Notes: generated from the letters alone by a model not told the origin. DNA of 64,000 nucleotides from Candidatus Nomurabacteria bacterium RIFCSPLOWO2_01_FULL_39_18 (GCA_001787005.1 MFUV01000004.1:105770-169769); one strand, 5' to 3'. Counted from the stretch's first letter, positions 6,600 to 64,000 are shown. Numbers and translations are program-made.

Positions 6600-9500
6600 C
6601 TATTTCAACCCTATTGTTACAGAATAAACATTTCCATCATCAAGTTTGGTAGAAATGGTATACCAATATCCGGCTGGTAATTTTTTCGTACTCCAGTTAT
6701 AGATATACTGCTGACTTTCAGGATCCCATTTGTATGTGTTGCCAGTTGTCGCAGTGTCATTATAAACAGATTCAGTGGCGGAAACATTCATTTTCGCACC
6801 CATTTGCGCACCGAGCCATATAGGCGCCGAATCTGCTTGCATAATTGTGCCATCATATTTTCTAAGTTGAAATTTAACAGGGACTGTACTGCCAGCTTTG
6901 AATATGCTTTTCTCTTGATCAATTTGATGTGCTGTATCGTTTATTGGTTGGAGAAAACCAGAGAAAACATATGGCATAGTAACGGTTCTACCTTCAGGGG
7001 CAATAATATCTGTCTCTGGGACCCCATCTCCATTTTGATCAAGTTGTAATAATAAAGCTCCCGCAGAATTCAGTGTAACTTCTGCGATTGTCTCCGGGGT
7101 CACTGGAATATCTTTAAAGATTGTTGTCGTCGTTGTTCCATTGGTTAGAACCTTTTCTGATTCATATGTGAATATACCGGTATCTATACCTTTTATTTCT
7201 ATACTCCCCATTTCGTCTTCGGGGAGGTTTAAGTACTTACCCTCACCGAATTCCATATATGATGAATTCGTAATATTTTCTTCTACATAACAAAAGTCAA
7301 AATCTGGCGGGCAAATTTTACCAGTGTGATTAGGTACTGTAGCATAATCATAAGCATCGAGAGTAACCGGTGAGTGAATTGAAATACGAAAACGATTTTC
7401 TGTGTCTATTGGTTCGTTGTCTTTTACCACATTGTCTAATGCAACATCTCCAGCTTCAATTATTGATTTAATAAAATTATTCAGTGAATCGACTTCTAAA
7501 ATATCTTTATGTTCTCTGTTGAGTCTCAATATAGTATTATAATTTTTAAAATCTACCCAATATTTTTCCGCATTTCCAAGAAAATTCATATATTGCGCAC
7601 TAGGCACAACTACAGTTCCATCCCCATCCGAGGTAAAACGAGGTCTTTCGTCTAATGCATACGGAGGACATGTTACAGCTCCGGGTGGGCAAGACACTGA
7701 TTTTGGGTAGTACTCCATACTTGCGACAGTTTCGAGTCCCCAGCCAGCCACTTCAATCACTCGCATGTCTTCAGGCGGAGTCCATGCGTCTATATTGTCG
7801 TGCAAACTTTCTGCTTGAGAAAATAAATCTTGTGAGAGATTGATAGGCAAATTTGTTTCACCAATCAATGGATTGGTTCGACCTTCATTTCCAAAAAGAA
7901 AATCTTTGTACTCGTCATAGGAATCAATTACGCCACCAAAAGCTTGAACCATTTGTGTTGTAATTCCCGAAGGAATTGCATTATCCACGAATGTCGCAGG
8001 TGAAGCATCGACATGATTTATATATTCTTTACTTGGTAAAAGTCCATAAGCCCCGAGCATATTTCGTCCAAGTTCACGAGCGTGAATTTCGTCCATTAGC
8101 CAGCCACTCAAAATTCTCTGGTCATATCCATGGAGTATTGCTGGTACTGCCTTTGCTGTGCCAATTTCTGGCACGGCAACTAAAATTAATACATCTATAT
8201 TATCAATTAGATTATTTATTCCCGCAACCTTGTCGTCTTGTAATTTTTTCAAAAGCGTTTTAGCTAAAAGTCCACCGTTGCTGTGAGCAACAATGGTAAC
8301 TTTGCCGTTTTTTGATTCCGAGTCGACCAATGATTGTAGAGTATCGATTAACGAGACTGTTTCATTTTGATATTTTGTTCCATTGCTCACAATGTCTTCA
8401 ATGTCTTGTCGCCAGTCATAGGCATATTCTTTCCATTTTTTTATTTTTTGATCAGTAACCAATTGATCCATAGTTTCAGAAAAACTTTTATAGATATTTT
8501 GTCCCAAAGCCCCTGCTGGAAATGGCGTGTTTGTCTCTTTTATGATATCTCTTGTATAAATATCTAGATTCATGCTTGTTCCATCAGGATTCAAATACAA
8601 ATCTTCCACATCGCTGTTTGTATTTGGTTCCCATAACTGGTCTTCATCTCCATTATCTTGCTCGTACAATCTAGAACCCATTATTCCCGGCAAAAAGAGA
8701 ACATTGGAGAAACAGGTGGTGCAAGTCGGAACTTTCCAGCCATCTGGTATTTTCCAAGGGAAATTGTCGGTTACATTGCCAAAGCTAATCGCAGTATCAC
8801 AAATAAAATCATTATTTATATCATTACATCCCTCCTCTGGAGTATCGTGGTTGCGATAATAGTTACCACCTATTGGCATTGGTTGATAAATGAGATTTGC
8901 AGAATTACTAAAGGAAGAAATATTCGGAATGGACATGAAATTATTATTGTAAACTTTATTATTGTTTACATTTGAACTCATTGCGACACCTATATTAGTT
9001 ACAGAAATTGTGTTGTTGCGCACCGTTGTTCTTTGTGTATTCTGAGTTAAAAGTATTCCTGTGCTAATAATGTTTACACCAGGAATATATCCAGCTGTAT
9101 TGGTTACCACATTGCCATCAATGAGATTATCAAAATCATTAAAGGAAAGAAAAAATCCTAAACCGAAGCCACGTGTTTCGTTGTTTAAGAATCGGCTATT
9201 TGTTGTTTGAAACACACCAATCCCACTATCAAAACCTTCAATAATTAAATTTTTTACTGTAATGTTTTTTCTAAAAGCAATATTAATTCCACTTCCAACC
9301 CCAAATCCATTATTCCATTTCACTATTTTTCCATTACCGTCGAGCGTAATATTGTCATTCACAATTTGTATTACTTCGAACACATCCTGTGTCATGGTGC
9401 AAGTAAGGGTGACTTGGTTCCATATGCCAAATGTAGAGCAATCTCCGCCCGTAGTATCATTACGAATGGTTTTTGTACTAGGTTGAGTTTTAATGAAAAT

Positions 9501-9902
9501 TAAATGAGGTTCGTAGCCATTTAAAGTAAAAGTTGTATTTGGGGATTCATTTGCAGAACGTTGCACCACATTTTCCAATGAATCAATATAAAAATAAAGG
9601 TCTTGGTTTGGAAGATTTTCCAATAAAATAGTTATTTCTTCTTTGCCTGCTATTGGAATAAATACCACAGATGATCCTAGCGATATTTCTTTTATAATTT
9701 CAGTTTCGGGGCTAGAAGAAATAGTGATATCTAAAAAGTCTTGTATAAATGGAAGATTGGCTGTTTCCGTTGTCGAGGCAGACTCATTTAGGAGAATAGT
9801 ATCTTCAGCATTTACTGTATGCCCACCCCAAAAAGACACCAAAATGAGGACCACCACCCCAAATTTCAATGCATTTTTCAGTACAGTCATAAATATCTCC
9901 AT
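6600..9902 (-). CDS. large secreted multidomain protein: signal peptide + right-handed beta-helix repeats + LCAT-like lipase domain + C-terminal domains
   Basis: Signal peptide MTVLKNALKFGVVVLILVSFWGGHTVNA; NITLDGNGKIV / NITVKNLIIEG type beta-helix repeats; FLPGIMGSRLY and VTIVAHSNGGLL (GxSxG-type) motifs as in the LCAT family. ORF-track start 9980 overlaps a palindrome and was rejected in favour of MEIFM/MTVLK. Confidence 0.65.
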   Translation of the reverse strand: MEIFMTVLKNALKFGVVVLILVSFWGGHTVNAEDTILLNESASTTETANLPFIQDFLDITISSSPETEIIKEISLGSSVVFIPIAGKEEITILLENLPNQDLYFYIDSLENVVQRSANESPNTTFTLNGYEPHLIFIKTQPSTKTIRNDTTGGDCSTFGIWNQVTLTCTMTQDVFEVIQIVNDNITLDGNGKIVKWNNGFGVGSGINIAFRKNITVKNLIIEGFDSGIGVFQTTNSRFLNNETRGFGLGFFLSFNDFDNLIDGNVVTNTAGYIPGVNIISTGILLTQNTQRTTVRNNTISVTNIGVAMSSNVNNNKVYNNNFMSIPNISSFSNSANLIYQPMPIGGNYYRNHDTPEEGCNDINNDFICDTAISFGNVTDNFPWKIPDGWKVPTCTTCFSNVLFLPGIMGSRLYEQDNGDEDQLWEPNTNSDVEDLYLNPDGTSMNLDIYTRDIIKETNTPFPAGALGQNIYKSFSETMDQLVTDQKIKKWKEYAYDWRQDIEDIVSNGTKYQNETVSLIDTLQSLVDSESKNGKVTIVAHSNGGLLAKTLLKKLQDDKVAGINNLIDNIDVLILVAVPEIGTAKAVPAILHGYDQRILSGWLMDEIHARELGRNMLGAYGLLPSKEYINHVDASPATFVDNAIPSGITTQMVQAFGGVIDSYDEYKDFLFGNEGRTNPLIGETNLPINLSQDLFSQAESLHDNIDAWTPPEDMRVIEVAGWGLETVASMEYYPKSVSCPPGAVTCPPYALDERPRFTSDGDGTVVVPSAQYMNFLGNAEKYWVDFKNYNTILRLNREHKDILEVDSLNNFIKSIIEAGDVALDNVVKDNEPIDTENRFRISIHSPVTLDAYDYATVPNHTGKICPPDFDFCYVEENITNSSYMEFGEGKYLNLPEDEMGSIEIKGIDTGIFTYESEKVLTNGTTTTTIFKDIPVTPETIAEVTLNSAGALLLQLDQNGDGVPETDIIAPEGRTVTMPYVFSGFLQPINDTAHQIDQEKSIFKAGSTVPVKFQLRKYDGTIMQADSAPIWLGAQMGAKMNVSATESVYNDTATTGNTYKWDPESQQYIYNWSTKKLPAGYWYTISTKLDDGNVYSVTIGLK

Positions 9903-9978
9903 ATTAGCAGTATTTCCTAAAACGGCAACTGGGGGCCAGTCTGTAGTAGAGTTAGGGTTAATAAAATCTATAATTACC

Positions 9979-9998
9979 ATCTACGCCATGGCGTAGAT
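9979..9998. repeat. palindrome A copy 2 (ATCTACGCCATGGCGTAGAT)
   Basis: Perfect palindrome exactly between the stop of the 9998-10366 gene and the promoter region of the lipase gene. Confidence 0.9.
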
Positions 9999-10446: not shown

Positions 10447-12666
10447 GTGGAACTTAGCGATAGACTTGAAATAAAATTCCGCTTAGATGTAAACCAAAAA
10501 AGGGCTTTAAATAGGCTCAAACTTTTCTCTATTGCCGACCTTTTGTACCACTTTCCTGTCAGATATTCTCATATTAGTGAAATAAAACCCATTAGCCAGT
10601 TAGTGGCGGGAGAATTTGCGACGGTCTATGGAAGATTTTGGAGTCCGGACATAAAAAGAGGATACAAAAGCAAAGTTTTGCGAGCAGAAGGAGAAGTGAT
10701 AGACGAAACTGGAAAAATAAAAGTTGTCTGGTTTAATCAAGCTTACATCGCGAAAATGATACATTCTGGACAATTCGTAGAACTAACCGGAAAAGTGATG
10801 GAAAGTAAAAGGGGCAAATATCTAGCAAACCCTGAATTCAAAAAGATTGATTTACTGCCGATTGATACACATGATTCTCTATTTAATTTTGAAAAGAAAA
10901 AACAGAGCGAAGTCTTTGGTTTTCCTGTTTATGCAGAGACCCGTGGCATAACTTCTAAATGGTTCTACCATGCAATAGAGAAAATATTGCGAGAAAAAAC
11001 GTTGGATAGAATAGGAGACTACATTCCAGAGGACATTCTTAAAAAATACAACCTCCCCAGCCTGAGGACCGCGCTCATTTGGATTCACAAGCCGAAAAAT
11101 TCGCGAGACGCTGAAAGCGCCAAGAAAAGATTCGCTTTCGAAGAAGTTTTTTGCATTCAGCTGGAGCGCCAGCATGACAAGTTTGAATACAAAAAAAATA
11201 AATCTTTTCAGATTATTCCAGATGAGAAAAACGTTAAGAAATTTTTAGAACGTTTTCCTTTCGAACCAACAAATTCCCAAAAGAAATCTATCGAGGTAGT
11301 CTTGGACGATATGGCGAAGAGTTTCCCCATGTCCCGCCTCCTAGAGGGTGATGTCGGATCTGGAAAGACAGCCGTTGCGGCCACAGCAAGCTATGTGGCA
11401 GTACAACAACGTCCCAATGGACAGACTTTTGGCAACTTACAAGTCGCTTACATGGCACCCACGGAGATCCTGGCGGCACAACACTTCGAATCTTTCATAG
11501 AATATTTTAAATACCTACCGATTAACATCGGGCTCATCACCGGATCAGGTTGCAGAAAATTCCCTTCTAAAGTTAACCCCCTCGGATGGACGAATATATC
11601 CCGCGCGCAGCTTTTGAAATGGGTAGCAAATGGAGAAATTCCCATATTGATAGGCACGCATGCTTTGATCCAAAAAACGGTTAAATTTAAAAATCTGGCG
11701 CTATGCGTGGTGGATGAACAGCACAGATTCGGTACAGCGCAGAGAAGAAAGTTGGTCAGGAAGGATGCAAAAGGAAATATGAGCGCTCCACACTTGCTCT
11801 CGATGACAGCTACCCCTATCCCCCGCACCTTGGCGCTGACCATCTATGGCGACCTAGACCTCTCTCTCCTCGATGAAATGCCTGCTGGCAGAAAGAAAAT
11901 AATAACAGAGATAATCACGCTGAAGGAGCGCGAAGAAACTTATGAAAAAGTCAGACAAGAATTAAAAGCTGGCAGACAGCTCTATGTGATCTGCCCGAGA
12001 ATTTTCGAACCGGATGAAGAGTACCCCTACCCGACCTCCCCCTATATAGGGGGAGGTGCCAAAGGCAGAGGGGGTATAGAAATGAAAGCCGTTACCACTG
12101 AAGCAAAACGACTCAAAAAAGAAGTTTTCAGAGAATACGAAATAGGTGTACTGCACAGCAAGATGAGCAAGGAAAAAAAAGAAAAAGTGATGCAGGAATT
12201 TACGGAAGGCAAAATAAATATTCTCTGCGCCACATCAGTGGTGGAAGTAGGAGTAAATGTGCCGAATGCCACCCTTATAATAATAGAAGGGGCGGAACGA
12301 TTCGGCTTAGCCCAGCTTCACCAGCTTCGCGGACGAGTGCTGAGGAGCACGCATCAAGCGTATTGTTACATCTTCGCTGACGCCAAAAGCGACAAAACTA
12401 TCGCCAGGTTAAAAGCTCTTAAAACCGCCCAAAACGGCTTCGAGCTCGCAGAGCTAGACCTCTCGCTCCGCGGTGCCGGAGAGCTCGGAGGAACGAAACA
12501 ATGGGGCATCACCGACCTCGGCATGGAAGCAATTAAAAATATAAAAATGGTTGAAGCCGCCCGCACCGAAGCTGTCCGCTTGATAGGAGAAGACCCAGAA
12601 CTCACTAAATATCCCCTACTGAAACAGAAAGTCCATCAAAAAGCTGGGGAATTTCATTTTGAATAA
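10447..12666 (+). CDS. recG: ATP-dependent DNA helicase RecG (GTG start)
   Basis: Wedge/OB N-terminus, DVGSGKT Walker A, DEQHRFG, helicase C motifs; TATAAT 9 nt upstream of the GTG. Confidence 0.9.
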   Translation: MELSDRLEIKFRLDVNQKRALNRLKLFSIADLLYHFPVRYSHISEIKPISQLVAGEFATVYGRFWSPDIKRGYKSKVLRAEGEVIDETGKIKVVWFNQAYIAKMIHSGQFVELTGKVMESKRGKYLANPEFKKIDLLPIDTHDSLFNFEKKKQSEVFGFPVYAETRGITSKWFYHAIEKILREKTLDRIGDYIPEDILKKYNLPSLRTALIWIHKPKNSRDAESAKKRFAFEEVFCIQLERQHDKFEYKKNKSFQIIPDEKNVKKFLERFPFEPTNSQKKSIEVVLDDMAKSFPMSRLLEGDVGSGKTAVAATASYVAVQQRPNGQTFGNLQVAYMAPTEILAAQHFESFIEYFKYLPINIGLITGSGCRKFPSKVNPLGWTNISRAQLLKWVANGEIPILIGTHALIQKTVKFKNLALCVVDEQHRFGTAQRRKLVRKDAKGNMSAPHLLSMTATPIPRTLALTIYGDLDLSLLDEMPAGRKKIITEIITLKEREETYEKVRQELKAGRQLYVICPRIFEPDEEYPYPTSPYIGGGAKGRGGIEMKAVTTEAKRLKKEVFREYEIGVLHSKMSKEKKEKVMQEFTEGKINILCATSVVEVGVNVPNATLIIIEGAERFGLAQLHQLRGRVLRSTHQAYCYIFADAKSDKTIARLKALKTAQNGFELAELDLSLRGAGELGGTKQWGITDLGMEAIKNIKMVEAARTEAVRLIGEDPELTKYPLLKQKVHQKAGEFHFE
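12022..12077. repeat. nested palindromic element inserted in-frame in recG
   Basis: TACCCCTACCCGACCTCCCCCTATATAGGGGGAGG...AGGGGGTA; encodes EYPYPTSPYIGGGAKGRGGIE; near-identical copy at 39869-39920. Confidence 0.85.
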
Positions 12667-29124: not shown

Positions 29125-29162
29125 CTGTTGTGAAATCACGCATATGCGTGATTTCACAACAG
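29125..29162. repeat. 38-bp perfect palindrome CTGTTGTGAAATCACGCATATGCGTGATTTCACAACAG (putative operator)
   Basis: Self-complementary; TGTGA..TCACA half-sites; 15 nt downstream of the wHTH gene stop. Confidence 0.85.
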
Positions 29163-29718: not shown

Positions 29719-29754
29719 TGTTGTGAATTTTAGCATATGCGAAATTTCACCACA
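29719..29754. repeat. imperfect palindrome TGTTGTGAATTTTAGCATATGCGAAATTTCACCACA abutting the regulator start codon
   Basis: Shares TGTTGTGAA / GCATATGC / TTTCAC..ACA with the 29125-29162 palindrome. Confidence 0.7.
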
Positions 29755-31252: not shown

Positions 31253-31262
31253 TGCTTTCTTG

Positions 31263-31308
31263 GCAGATAGAGCTTTAGACTCTAGATAGAGTCTAAAGCT
31301 CTATCTGC
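31263..31308. repeat. 46-nt hairpin GCAGATAGAGCTTTAGACTC-TAGATA-GAGTCTAAAGCTCTATCTGC
   Basis: 20-bp perfect stem between the rplO stop and the secY start; related copy at 35747-35791. Confidence 0.85.
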
Positions 31309-32564: not shown

Positions 32565-32583
32565 TTTTTTTTATTTTCTCCTC

Positions 32584-32638
32584 AAGGTCTTGCCTTGGAA
32601 TCCCTAAAGGCAAGACCTTTTCCCGAAAATTTATACGG
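32584..32638. repeat. hairpin AAGGTCTTGCCTT-N9-AAGGCAAGACCTT + TTCCCGAAAATTTA
   Basis: 13-bp perfect stem; overlaps the rplF stop; second copy at 41805-41858. Confidence 0.8.
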
Positions 32639-35737: not shown

Positions 35738-35746
35738 GATTTTTTA

Positions 35747-35791
35747 CAGATAGAGTTTTAGACTCTAGATAGAGGCTAAACCTCTATCTGC
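35747..35791. repeat. hairpin CAGATAGAGTTTTAGACTC-TAGATA-GAGGCTAAACCTCTATCTG (variant copy)
   Basis: Same family as 31263-31308; between the rplP stop and the rpmC start. Confidence 0.8.
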
Positions 35792-38024: not shown

Positions 38025-38130
38025 GGTGCATCTCCTTTCATCTACAACCTTAAAAGAAATATATATATAAAGCAAGATCTGGGTGTGAATAAAAATACAC
38101 AGGCGTTGCCTGTGTATTGGTTATTTGTGA

Positions 38131-38589: not shown

Positions 38590-38739
38590 GCGAAACCTCC
38601 TTTCACTTAGGAGCTTAAAAGAAATATATATATAAAGCAAGTTCTGGGTGTGGAGAAATACAACCCCTCCAAACCTCCCCTTATCAGGGGAGGTACAAAA
38701 AATCCCCCTGACAAGGGGGACTTAGGGGGTTATTTTTTT

Positions 38740-39868: not shown

Positions 39869-39920
39869 TACCCCCTCCTTTCTCCTCCCCCTATATAGGG
39901 GGAGGCTGGGTAGGGGTATT
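39869..39920. repeat. nested palindromic element, intergenic copy (rplD stop / rplW RBS)
   Basis: TACCCCTACCCAGCCTCCCCCTATATAGGGGGAGG..AGGGGGTA (minus sense); supplies AAAGGAGG upstream of the rplW ATG; matches the recG insert. Confidence 0.85.
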
Positions 39921-41767: not shown

Positions 41768-41804
41768 GGATTTATTTAAAAGGACAATTTGGATTTTTCT
41801 CCCC

Positions 41805-41858
41805 AAGGTCTTGCCTTAAGGAACCCAAAGGCAAGACCTTTTCCCGAAAAATTTAACC
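41805..41858. repeat. hairpin AAGGTCTTGCCTT-N10-AAGGCAAGACCTT + TTCCCGAAAAATTTA (copy 2)
   Basis: Overlaps the tuf stop codon; identical stems to 32584-32638. Confidence 0.8.
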
Positions 41859-62537: not shown

Positions 62538-63068
62538 TTACAAGATCTCTTTTTCCAGTCTTTTTTCTATCTCTTCTTCACTCAGTGGGCGTAGCATCTT
62601 CCGCAGCTCTGGATCTTCTGATAAATCTATTCCTTGCTTCTCGAGCAGGAGAGACATCATCTTCATAAGTTTGGTAACTTCTCGTTCTGAAATGAGATTT
62701 AATTGCAGATGAGTTTCTTCTCGCAAGTCGTCTACTTTGGCCGTGCGGTTTTGCGAGATAAGCACGAAAATCGCGAGGATGATCGCCTCGAGGGACACTA
62801 TGTTGGTCAGTAGATTGAAAGGAAAAGGATCAAATGGGGGGACAGACGCTATTTGGTTAGTATTGATAAGTATCCAACCAATGAATAAAAATACGTTGAA
62901 CAATAAAAAGGTGTTGCTCCCGAAATTCTCCGTCATGAAGTCCGCCATTTTTTCCGTAATCGTCCGCCGGGCATCTGCCTTCGCCTTAATGCTACGAAAG
63001 ACTCTTTTACGGGCTTCTTCATTCTCGCCAAAGAGTAACTTCAAAAATGAAATATTATTATTAGCCAT
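62538..63068 (-). CDS. DUF1003-family membrane protein
   Basis: Two TM helices, then charged coiled-coil C-terminus. Confidence 0.5.
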   Translation of the reverse strand: MANNNISFLKLLFGENEEARKRVFRSIKAKADARRTITEKMADFMTENFGSNTFLLFNVFLFIGWILINTNQIASVPPFDPFPFNLLTNIVSLEAIILAIFVLISQNRTAKVDDLREETHLQLNLISEREVTKLMKMMSLLLEKQGIDLSEDPELRKMLRPLSEEEIEKRLEKEIL

Positions 63069-63074
63069 TATTCT

Positions 63075-64000
63075 CTAATTATACAATTTCTGTATCTTTT
63101 CAGCCAGCTCATAACTATTCCCGTGCCCAATTAACCCTAAATAAGATTGAATCGTTTCTGGTTTTGGATCGTCGCCCACATTTTTTAACATTCTTCGCTT
63201 TGTACTCGTCCTTAAAACTCTATGATGAGCAAAGTGTACCCAACCAAGGAAATCAATGCCGGAAGCAATGGTTTTGATAAAAACTTTATCTGGATGTAAT
63301 TGTAATTTAAGCTTTTCTTCTAAAAATTTAGAGATTTTAGGTAAAATATTTTCTAGACACATTCTGTTCGGCCCTAAAATGACAAAATCATCTGCGTATC
63401 GGATATAGTATTTCACTTTCAATTCCCTTTTCATGAACTGATCAAATTCATTCATGTAGATATTCACAAGAAGCTGACTGGTAAGATTCCCGAGTGGCAA
63501 CCCCTTTTTGCATATATCAGCTAAAGCGTAAATGTGTATTTTGGAAGAAAAACTATCTAAAACTTGCGACAGTAACCAAAGAAGGTTTTTGTCTCTTATA
63601 TGTTTTTCTAAAATTTTCTTCAAAATTCGATGATCAATATTCGCAAAGAATTTTTTAATGTCGCATTTCAATACCCAACATGTTTGTGTATTGTTTTTTG
63701 AAACTTTTCGGAAAAAGCTTCGAAACCTGTTTATGGCCTTGTGTGTACCTTTATTTATCCTGCAAGAATAGGAGTCATAGATAAACTTGGAGTCGAAATA
63801 TTCATAAAGCTCCTGGTATATTAGATGGTGAAGTATTCTATCTCTAACCGTCGCTTTGTGTATTTGCCTCGGTTTCGGATCAGAAATGTTGAAAGCTGTA
63901 TAGCTCCCATGTTTATAGGTTTTGTTTTTTAAGTCATTATATAAATCAAAAATATTGTCCATCAACTTAGCTTGAAATAAGATAACATCTTTGCGACCTT
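63075..64000 (-). CDS. diversity-generating retroelement (DGR) reverse transcriptase, Brt-like; N-terminus runs off the window
   Basis: KTYKHGSYTAFNISDPKPRQIHKATVRDRILHHL (near Brt N-term), DIKKFFANIDH, GLPLGNLTSQLLVNIYM (DGR-specific SQ motif 4), YIRYADDFVIL; frame stays open to 64000. Confidence 0.8.
   Translation of the reverse strand, partial: GRKDVILFQAKLMDNIFDLYNDLKNKTYKHGSYTAFNISDPKPRQIHKATVRDRILHHLIYQELYEYFDSKFIYDSYSCRINKGTHKAINRFRSFFRKVSKNNTQTCWVLKCDIKKFFANIDHRILKKILEKHIRDKNLLWLLSQVLDSFSSKIHIYALADICKKGLPLGNLTSQLLVNIYMNEFDQFMKRELKVKYYIRYADDFVILGPNRMCLENILPKISKFLEEKLKLQLHPDKVFIKTIASGIDFLGWVHFAHHRVLRTSTKRRMLKNVGDDPKPETIQSYLGLIGHGNSYELAEKIQKLYN

Follow-up and report, generated by a model that had tools for sequence, protein, structure and literature searches.

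Near one end of a 64,000-nt stretch of DNA, hereafter called the window, a gene for a reverse transcriptase (RT) is cut off by the edge at nt 64000. Does this RT belong to a diversity-generating retroelement (DGR), and if so, where are the remaining parts of the element and what does its arrangement say about how it could work? An earlier reading of the sequence alone (the sequence-only reading) had taken the gene for a DGR RT and had expected the template repeat (TR), an avd gene and the variable target gene just beyond the window. Here we follow the element past the edge, compare it with its relatives and with the Bordetella phage system, and describe a structured leader that precedes the TR.

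The reverse transcriptase gene at the window edge

The RT gene occupies 63075–64000 on the minus strand of the window, where residues 29–336 of 336 and the stop codon were recognized from the open reading frame, an RVT_1 domain, and PDB and PHROG matches. The frame comprises 307 codons and a stop (63075–63077) and, as had been noted, continues without interruption to nt 64000. The full-length protein of 336 aa was read from an identical public contig; the first 28 codons fall outside the window, at window-equivalent positions 64001–64085. RVT_1 (E 4e-25) is the only credible Pfam domain. X/maturase, DNA-binding and endonuclease domains are absent and the protein ends after the thumb region, so that its description as an RT domain and nothing else proved correct. 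The gene next to it (62538–63068, minus strand) encodes a DUF1003 membrane protein (PF06210) and lies outside the DGR. A TR located 3' of the RT was considered and rejected, since the stop codon of the RT is just 6 nt away from the start of the DUF1003 gene.

Two catalytic-core motifs were read directly from the sequence, both on the minus strand: motif 4, GLPLGNLTSQ, at 63474–63503, and YADD at 63387–63398. The SQ variant of motif 4 is diagnostic of DGR RTs, and its presence, already pointed out in the sequence-only reading, was borne out. The same holds for the N-terminal string KTYKHGSYTAFNISDPKPRQI...DRILHH, for which a resemblance to Bordetella Brt had been claimed: the top PDB match of the RT is 8ub7_A (328 aa, 'Reverse transcriptase'; E 1.4e-34, residues 8–317), which we take to be the Bordetella phage bRT. 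In the alignment of the two proteins, GLPLGNLTSQLLVNIY of the RT falls on GIPIGSLTSQLFANVY of bRT, PKPR on PKPR, GLPLGNLTSQ on GIPIGSLTSQ and YADD on YMDD. The second PDB match, 5hhl (E 3e-21), is named 'Retron-type reverse transcriptase' by its depositors and is presumably a group-II-intron-like RT. Among the PHROG families, phrog_1423 matched at 1e-105. These comparisons place the RT in the DGR lineage, nearer to bRT than to group II, retron and other RTs.

The remainder of the cassette lies just past the window edge

The DUF1003 gene served as a handle for finding a public contig that extends the window. This contig, ena:ERZ27254767:k141_625252 (133 kb), here called locus L001, matches the window at every position of the 1,463 nt that were compared (100% identity). 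It comes from a different assembly, and identity beyond those 1,463 nt is assumed. A window position equals 73069 minus the L001 position. The avd gene, the TR and the target gene that bears the variable repeat (VR) were all found within 1.6 kb past the window edge, beginning 87 nt (avd), 489 nt (TR) and about 1 kb (VR) beyond nt 64000, where they had been predicted to lie.

Along L001, the cassette starts with a gene for a 204-aa target protein (7465–8079; window-equivalent 64990–65604), which has its own consensus promoter and whose last 39 codons form the VR (7960–8076; window-equivalent 64993–65109); the VR reaches exactly to the stop codon. It is followed by a non-coding interval of 384 nt (8080–8463), which contains a conserved extended -10 box (8219–8227) and a structured leader of ~230 nt (about 8234–8463), and then by the intergenic TR of 117 nt (8464–8580; window-equivalent 64489–64605) and a terminator-like hairpin with a U-tract (8591–8612). 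A bAvd gene of 120 aa (8620–8982; window-equivalent 64087–64449) comes next, on the strand opposite to the RT gene, which completes the cassette (8984–9994). The avd gene was identified by PF22296 (bAvd, 2.9e-15) and by phrog_3206 ('Avd protein of DGR', 3.6e-17).

The TR and VR form a direct repeat of 117 nt, and all of their mismatches (24/24) fall on the 35 adenines of the TR (hypergeometric P 7.5e-17). The TR contains nine AAC/AAT codons, and 32 of its 35 adenines occupy codon positions 1–2. The search past nt 64000 that had been recommended thus returned both an adenine-only TR/VR pair and a bAvd gene. What did not hold was the gene order: the order target-avd-TR-RT of Bordetella had been assumed as canonical, while the observed order is target..TR-(avd, opposite strand)-RT, with only about 40 nt between TR and avd. 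Nor do the pilin, lipase or other genes of the window carry a VR, which had been raised as a point to check. When the TR was scanned against both strands of the 64-kb window with its adenines ignored, the best match agreed at 38/82 positions, a background level, and no second VR was found there or in L001.

GenBank holds proteins identical to those of the cassette, OGI65471 (RT), OGI65472 (Avd) and OGI65473 (target), all labelled hypothetical proteins. They come from a Rifle groundwater (RIFCSP) genome bin, Candidatus Nomurabacteria bacterium RIFCSPHIGHO2_01_FULL_40_2.., and their name agrees with the CPR host that had been proposed, a lineage of the Patescibacteria / Parcubacteria group. The three entries and the 384-nt non-coding interval can now be labelled as RT, Avd, variable protein, TR and TR-RNA leader. 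The cassette is flanked by murB, secE, nusG and rplK on one side, and by a Sua5-family gene, a VKOR-family gene and rplS on the other; the DUF1003 gene marks its downstream end, and murB comes next. Since housekeeping genes stand on both flanks, the element is chromosomal and not part of a prophage. We conclude that the open reading frame at the window edge is, with high confidence, the RT of a chromosomal DGR in a Candidatus Nomurabacteria bacterium, with the cassette laid out as on L001.

Several features of the gene starts were observed. A perfect sigma-70 consensus promoter (12/12; TTGACA, 18 nt, TG-n-TATAAT; L001 7354–7383) lies about 80 nt 5' of the target start, with an AAGGAG ribosome-binding site after it, and overlaps the final 4 nt, that is the stop codon, of the upstream Sua5/YrdC-family gene. 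The start codons of avd and RT stand head to head, 1 nt apart (CAT-T-ATG; L001 8980–8986, window-equivalent 64083–64089), and therefore the promoter and ribosome-binding site of each gene must be within the other gene. Abutting or overlapping divergent avd/RT starts were also seen in relatives, e.g. L013 and L032. The RT might be expressed by transcription that continues from the TR RNA through avd in the antisense direction. Phase variation at a G8 tract at the 5' end of avd was considered and rejected, because L003 differs there by a G-to-T substitution, with the length of the tract kept.

The target protein

No Pfam or PHROG match was obtained for the target, and neither Foldseek against the PDB nor a profile search against PDB sequences gave a significant fold. 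Its 204 aa contain no convincing signal peptide or membrane segment, and the designation of the target as a surface protein in the sequence-only reading is unsupported. The Kyte-Doolittle maximum over 19 residues is 1.9, at residues 8–26; these residues were rejected as a membrane segment, since they contain E and D and form an amphipathic helix in homologues. In this respect the L001 target agrees with the report that targets of CPR clade 2 are without recognisable transmembrane or conserved domains (Roux et al. 2021).

About 23 homologues of the target were found, of which the four named ones are from CPR taxa. The variable columns of the family match the TR-adenine codons, and are set in an alternating scaffold, FVAxVxFxxxGRLxVxVxxFSxxxVWxAxYRHRxV. 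A C-type lectin (or Ig) fold displays the variable residues of DGR targets, and the C-terminal domain encoded by the VR region may be lectin-like.

The base composition of the target gene was also observed to stand out. In L001, the body of the gene has 61% GC, the locus 39% and the RT 34%. Across 38 loci, the GC content of the 400 nt located 5' of the VR exceeds that of the locus by 9 points on average, and by over 5 points in 29/38; the RTs have less GC than their loci. Amino-acid composition, horizontal transfer and past adenine depletion are possible reasons for this excess.

Relatives and published DGRs of CPR bacteria

CPR bacteria are already known as the most DGR-rich lineage. A scan of one genome per species gave at least 572 related RTs, mostly from CPR-named genomes, and the loci of the best 80 of these, 59–79% identical, were fetched. 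An avd homologue on the opposite strand, abutting the RT, is present in 78/80 of these loci. An adenine-biased TR/VR pair was detected in 59/80, and the layout is VR(+)..TR(+)-avd(-)-RT(+) in 57 of those 59.

The order TR, reverse-strand avd and RT in a CPR host is that of architecture B3, TR-(avd)-RT, in the classification of Wu et al. (2018), who described a 'CPR set' of DGRs mainly from groundwater metagenomes. The element also fits DGR clade 2 of Roux et al. (2021), which is cell-encoded, aquatic and restricted to Patescibacteria. It is like these published CPR DGRs in host group, gene order, cell encoding and aquatic or groundwater setting, with no substantive difference at the level of the element. 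It is an ordinary member of a well-documented CPR DGR clade and has little novelty as a DGR. The biological importance that had been ascribed to a DGR in a CPR organism had been documented before, so that the finding is not new.

Activity of the element

The VR is the same in four independent assemblies from different samples (L001, L002, L004 and L088). This identity implies that its turnover is not rapid, or that one variant dominates. It could also mean that the DGR has decayed or is currently inactive, the divergence of TR and VR being a record of past activity, and two further observations point the same way. The 3' flank of the VR is without the CAA of a CAACT pentamer that is present in the closest relatives, which could impair homing. 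Additionally, metagenome_contigs was scanned with a pattern that allowed any base at the TR adenines, and no further VR variants were obtained; there were no matches at all, known copies included, and this collection is evidently without the source samples.

Decay is nevertheless unlikely. RT, Avd, TR, leader and target are all intact, the YADD and SQ motifs are kept, and a VR variant with the same flank exists in another sample. This variant, on contig L090 (1,190 nt), has 6 differences from L001, all of them in the 3' part of the VR; 5/6 are at TR-adenine positions and one is at a non-adenine site. By our own arithmetic, the chance that all six changes would land in the VR is about 1e-6. The variant suggests diversification in the population, although L090, a short single contig, could be an assembly mosaic.

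A structured leader RNA precedes the template repeat

In eight species, the region between VR and TR is conserved from an invariant TGnTATACT box (L001 8219–8227) onward. This extended -10 box, TGCTATACT, is followed by a leader of ~230 nt that ends 1 nt 5' of the TR (box and leader, L001 8219–8463; window-equivalent 64606–64850). RNAalifold predicted 67 pairs for the leader region in the eight species, 35 of them with compensatory changes. Nine helices were named on this first eight-sequence fold. Two covariance models were then used, one for a TR-proximal domain (L001 8354–8465, 32 bp) and one for a 5' domain (8228–8342, 38 bp), whose alignments contain 5 and 9 helices, respectively.

The TR-proximal model matched 68 and the 5' model 46 of the 80 related loci, plus L001. 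There is one match per locus, on the TR strand, with both domains side by side and directly 5' of the TR; the TR-proximal domain stops 1–4 nt short of the TR in 68/68 matching loci. No match was found elsewhere in 883 kb, nor in the window. Paired cells make up 94.6% (TR-proximal) and 92.1% (5' domain) of the two alignments, compared with 69% and 57% after shuffling and 32–50% when slid, and compensatory changes were found in 27/32 and 36/38 pairs, respectively; the alignments were fitted to the models, a bias in favour of the models, and the margins are large.

A hairpin with a covarying stem, followed by TTTT[C/G]TTTT, stands 3' of the TR in about 50 of the 68 loci checked. In L001 this is the hairpin at 8591–8612, which was also called terminator-like by the scan tool. 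An E-value scan of L001 7300–10100 against Rfam gave no known RNA family, intron and retron RNAs included. The RT-10 spacer motif is among the families of Rfam.

Two apical hairpins of the leader, L001 8253–8262 and 8303–8314, were observed to have common conserved closing pairs (GGn...nCUU), a G-U and a G-C pair that are present in 43/46 and 29–33/46 sequences, respectively. They may be repeated protein-binding sites.

For other DGRs, Handa et al. (bioRxiv 2023.10.23.563531) examined no more than the 40 nt 5' of the TR and the 100 nt 3' of it, and reported stem-loops on the 3' side, CPR included. In the literature that we searched, we found no description of the leader RNA or of the relation between leader and VR flank set out in the next section. 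Judged from sequence comparison, the leader and its relation to the TR and VR flanks may be the only new parts of the element.

A leader pentamer and the flanks of TR and VR

Helix 1 of the leader pairs L001 8361–8372 with 8451–8462 over 12 bp and ends 1 nt 5' of the TR. Just 5' of this helix stands the pentamer AGUUG (A8356–G8360), which can pair 3' of the near-invariant G8577 of the TR. G8577 ends the mutagenised homology, and the flank sites are L001 8578–8582 for the TR and 8074–8078 for the VR. In 54 loci, 76.6% of the cells of the pentamer/TR-flank pairing were paired compared with 66.4% after shuffling (0/500), 16 double-change cells were found compared with 4.2, and the covariation score was 0.21 compared with 0.06 (0.01–0.11 when slid); this pairing was picked after viewing the data.

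The relation to the VR flank is closer. In 28/38 loci, the first 5 nt 3' of the VR are a perfect complement of the pentamer (mean of 8.5 loci after shuffling, maximum 18 in 5,000 shuffles), and six covarying versions of the match occur. The TR flank is a perfect complement in 4/38 loci and usually has one fixed mismatch. The VR flank thus follows the leader and not the TR. A single fixed nucleotide of a non-adenine type distinguishes the TR flank from the VR flank in the relatives (GAAACT and GCAACT; GCAACT and GCAAGT), and the adenines of the VR flank are not mutagenised (38 related loci). Such a pattern would arise if the primer strand recognises the target site or is copied into it.

At the focal locus, the VR flank reads CTGTAA after the G. 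This equals CAACTGTAA, which follows the G in the nearest relatives, minus 3 nt, and the complement of the pentamer is absent; the shortening is an apparent 3-nt deletion. A similar loss in the VR flank is seen in L008. A GC-rich hairpin stands 20 nt 3' of the VR. A GAAAC/GTTTC mini-hairpin at the 3' end of the TR was considered as the priming duplex and rejected, being present in the closest relatives only and not clade-wide.

Could the leader stand apart from the reverse-transcription machinery, as a riboswitch or other regulatory 5' leader that controls the amount of TR RNA, or as a small RNA that happens to be encoded in the same interval? What ties it to RT-Avd is comparison, its 5' domain is present in fewer loci (46) than its TR-proximal domain (68), and at the focal locus the complementarity of leader and VR flank is missing. 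Such independence is nevertheless improbable, and somewhat more so than decay of the element. The leader occurs once per locus, on the TR strand, ends 1–4 nt before the TR in every matching locus and is found nowhere else in the 883 kb; its closing 12-bp helix abuts the 5' end of the TR; and the pentamer beside that helix covaries with the sequence after the TR and, better, with the sequence after the VR, neither of which pairings a riboswitch needs.

Comparison with the Bordetella phage DGR and a possible model for priming and homing

The DGR of Bordetella phage BPP-1 (mtd-avd-TR-brt; structures 8ub7–8ube) is like L001 in the size and motif set of its RT (310 residues aligned), in its bAvd-family accessory protein, in a TR of about 120 nt, in a VR at the 3' end of the target ORF, in TR/VR differences at adenines only and in a hairpin 3' of the VR. 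It is phage-borne whereas the L001 element is chromosomal, and its target is a tail fibre, whereas that of L001 is a 204-aa protein. Unlike in Bordetella, avd is located between TR and RT in L001, on the opposite strand. Since only about 40 nt lie between the TR and avd in L001, there is no room for a 3' spacer (Sp) of the Bordetella type, which is 140 nt long.

In the published Bordetella RNA, Sp53–56 is paired with TR118–121, next to Sp59–70 paired with avd369–379. L001 mirrors these duplexes with a primer-like strand, one nucleotide, and a long helix whose partner abuts the 5' end of the TR; the position equivalent to Sp is 5' of the TR in L001, unlike in Bordetella. We tentatively propose that the RNA scaffold that holds and primes the RT is located 5' of the TR in this CPR DGR clade, as a circular permutation of the Bordetella DGR RNA, a reading that we regard as a serious candidate that falls somewhat short of probable.

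Under this proposal, the invariant extended -10 box would start the ~230-nt leader. The last helix of the leader (12 bp) would abut the 5' end of the TR, like the avd:Sp 'stop' duplex of Bordetella, and the pentamer would pair with nucleotides that directly follow the templated region, as the TR:Sp primer duplex does.

For the mechanism of the element as a whole, homology with the phage DGR of Bordetella suggests that RT-Avd binds a leader-TR RNA of about 385 nt, and that the TR is reverse transcribed with random misincorporation opposite adenines. The cDNA would then replace the VR, rewriting up to about 24 nucleotide positions, including nine AAY codons in the C-terminal domain of the target. 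Where the transcript starts and stops, where synthesis is primed, that retrohoming takes place and what the target does are inferences from this homology.

To our knowledge, priming of cDNA synthesis and target choice in DGRs are unstudied outside the Bordetella phage system. The leader, together with the three-way relation of leader, TR flank and VR flank, provides a testable model of how DGRs of the TR-(avd)-RT type prime and choose their target. If true, the relation between pentamer and flanks would be a sequence-level explanation of the directionality of IMH and IMH*.

Comparison with group II introns and retrons

Retrons, like L001, have a structured non-coding RNA encoded beside the RT. 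They consist of an RT and an msr/msd RNA, with 2'-OH priming from a conserved G. The invariant unpaired G of the leader (L001 8360), between the putative primer strand and the long helix, recalls this branching G. Unlike retrons, L001 has a TR/VR pair and Avd, and is without inverted repeats of the msr/msd type and without an Rfam retron match. Group II intron RTs/maturases have a related fingers-palm-thumb core with an N-terminal extension, and group-II-like RTs are the next-best PDB matches after bRT. L001 differs from group II introns in having neither the X/maturase, DNA-binding and endonuclease domains nor the intron RNA domains.

In NCBIfam, the strongest match of the RT is to a group II RT/maturase model (TIGR04416; E 3e-46), yet with 158 bits compared with a cut-off of 300. 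Weaker matches to Drt3a, Drt2 and retron models are below their cut-offs too (79 bits compared with 200, and for the retron models 57 compared with 235), and the RT is far under the curated cut-offs of all the group II RT/maturase, retron, Drt2/3/5 and AbiA models. It is thus exceedingly improbable that the RT stems from anything other than a DGR, be it a retron, a group II intron or an anti-phage defence RT of the Drt/Abi kind, given these scores, a protein of only 336 aa without a maturase/X or endonuclease domain, a lead of bRT over the other PDB matches by 13 orders of magnitude, the absence of intron and retron RNA in the Rfam scan and, above all, the adjacent Avd gene and adenine-specific TR/VR pair, which refute such an origin.

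Other repeats in the window

The window also contains scattered families of repeats that are unrelated to the DGR, 35–62 nt long and mostly palindromic, e.g. AAGGTCTTGCC...GGCAAGACCTT and CCTCCCCCTATATAGGGGGAGG. Common terminator hairpins or small repetitive elements are possible explanations. Their copies are located at 12022–12056 and 39884–39918, at 29126–29161 and 29719–29754, at 31257–31308 and 35740–35791, at 32574–32632 and 41795–41853, and at 38032–38093 and 38597–38658.
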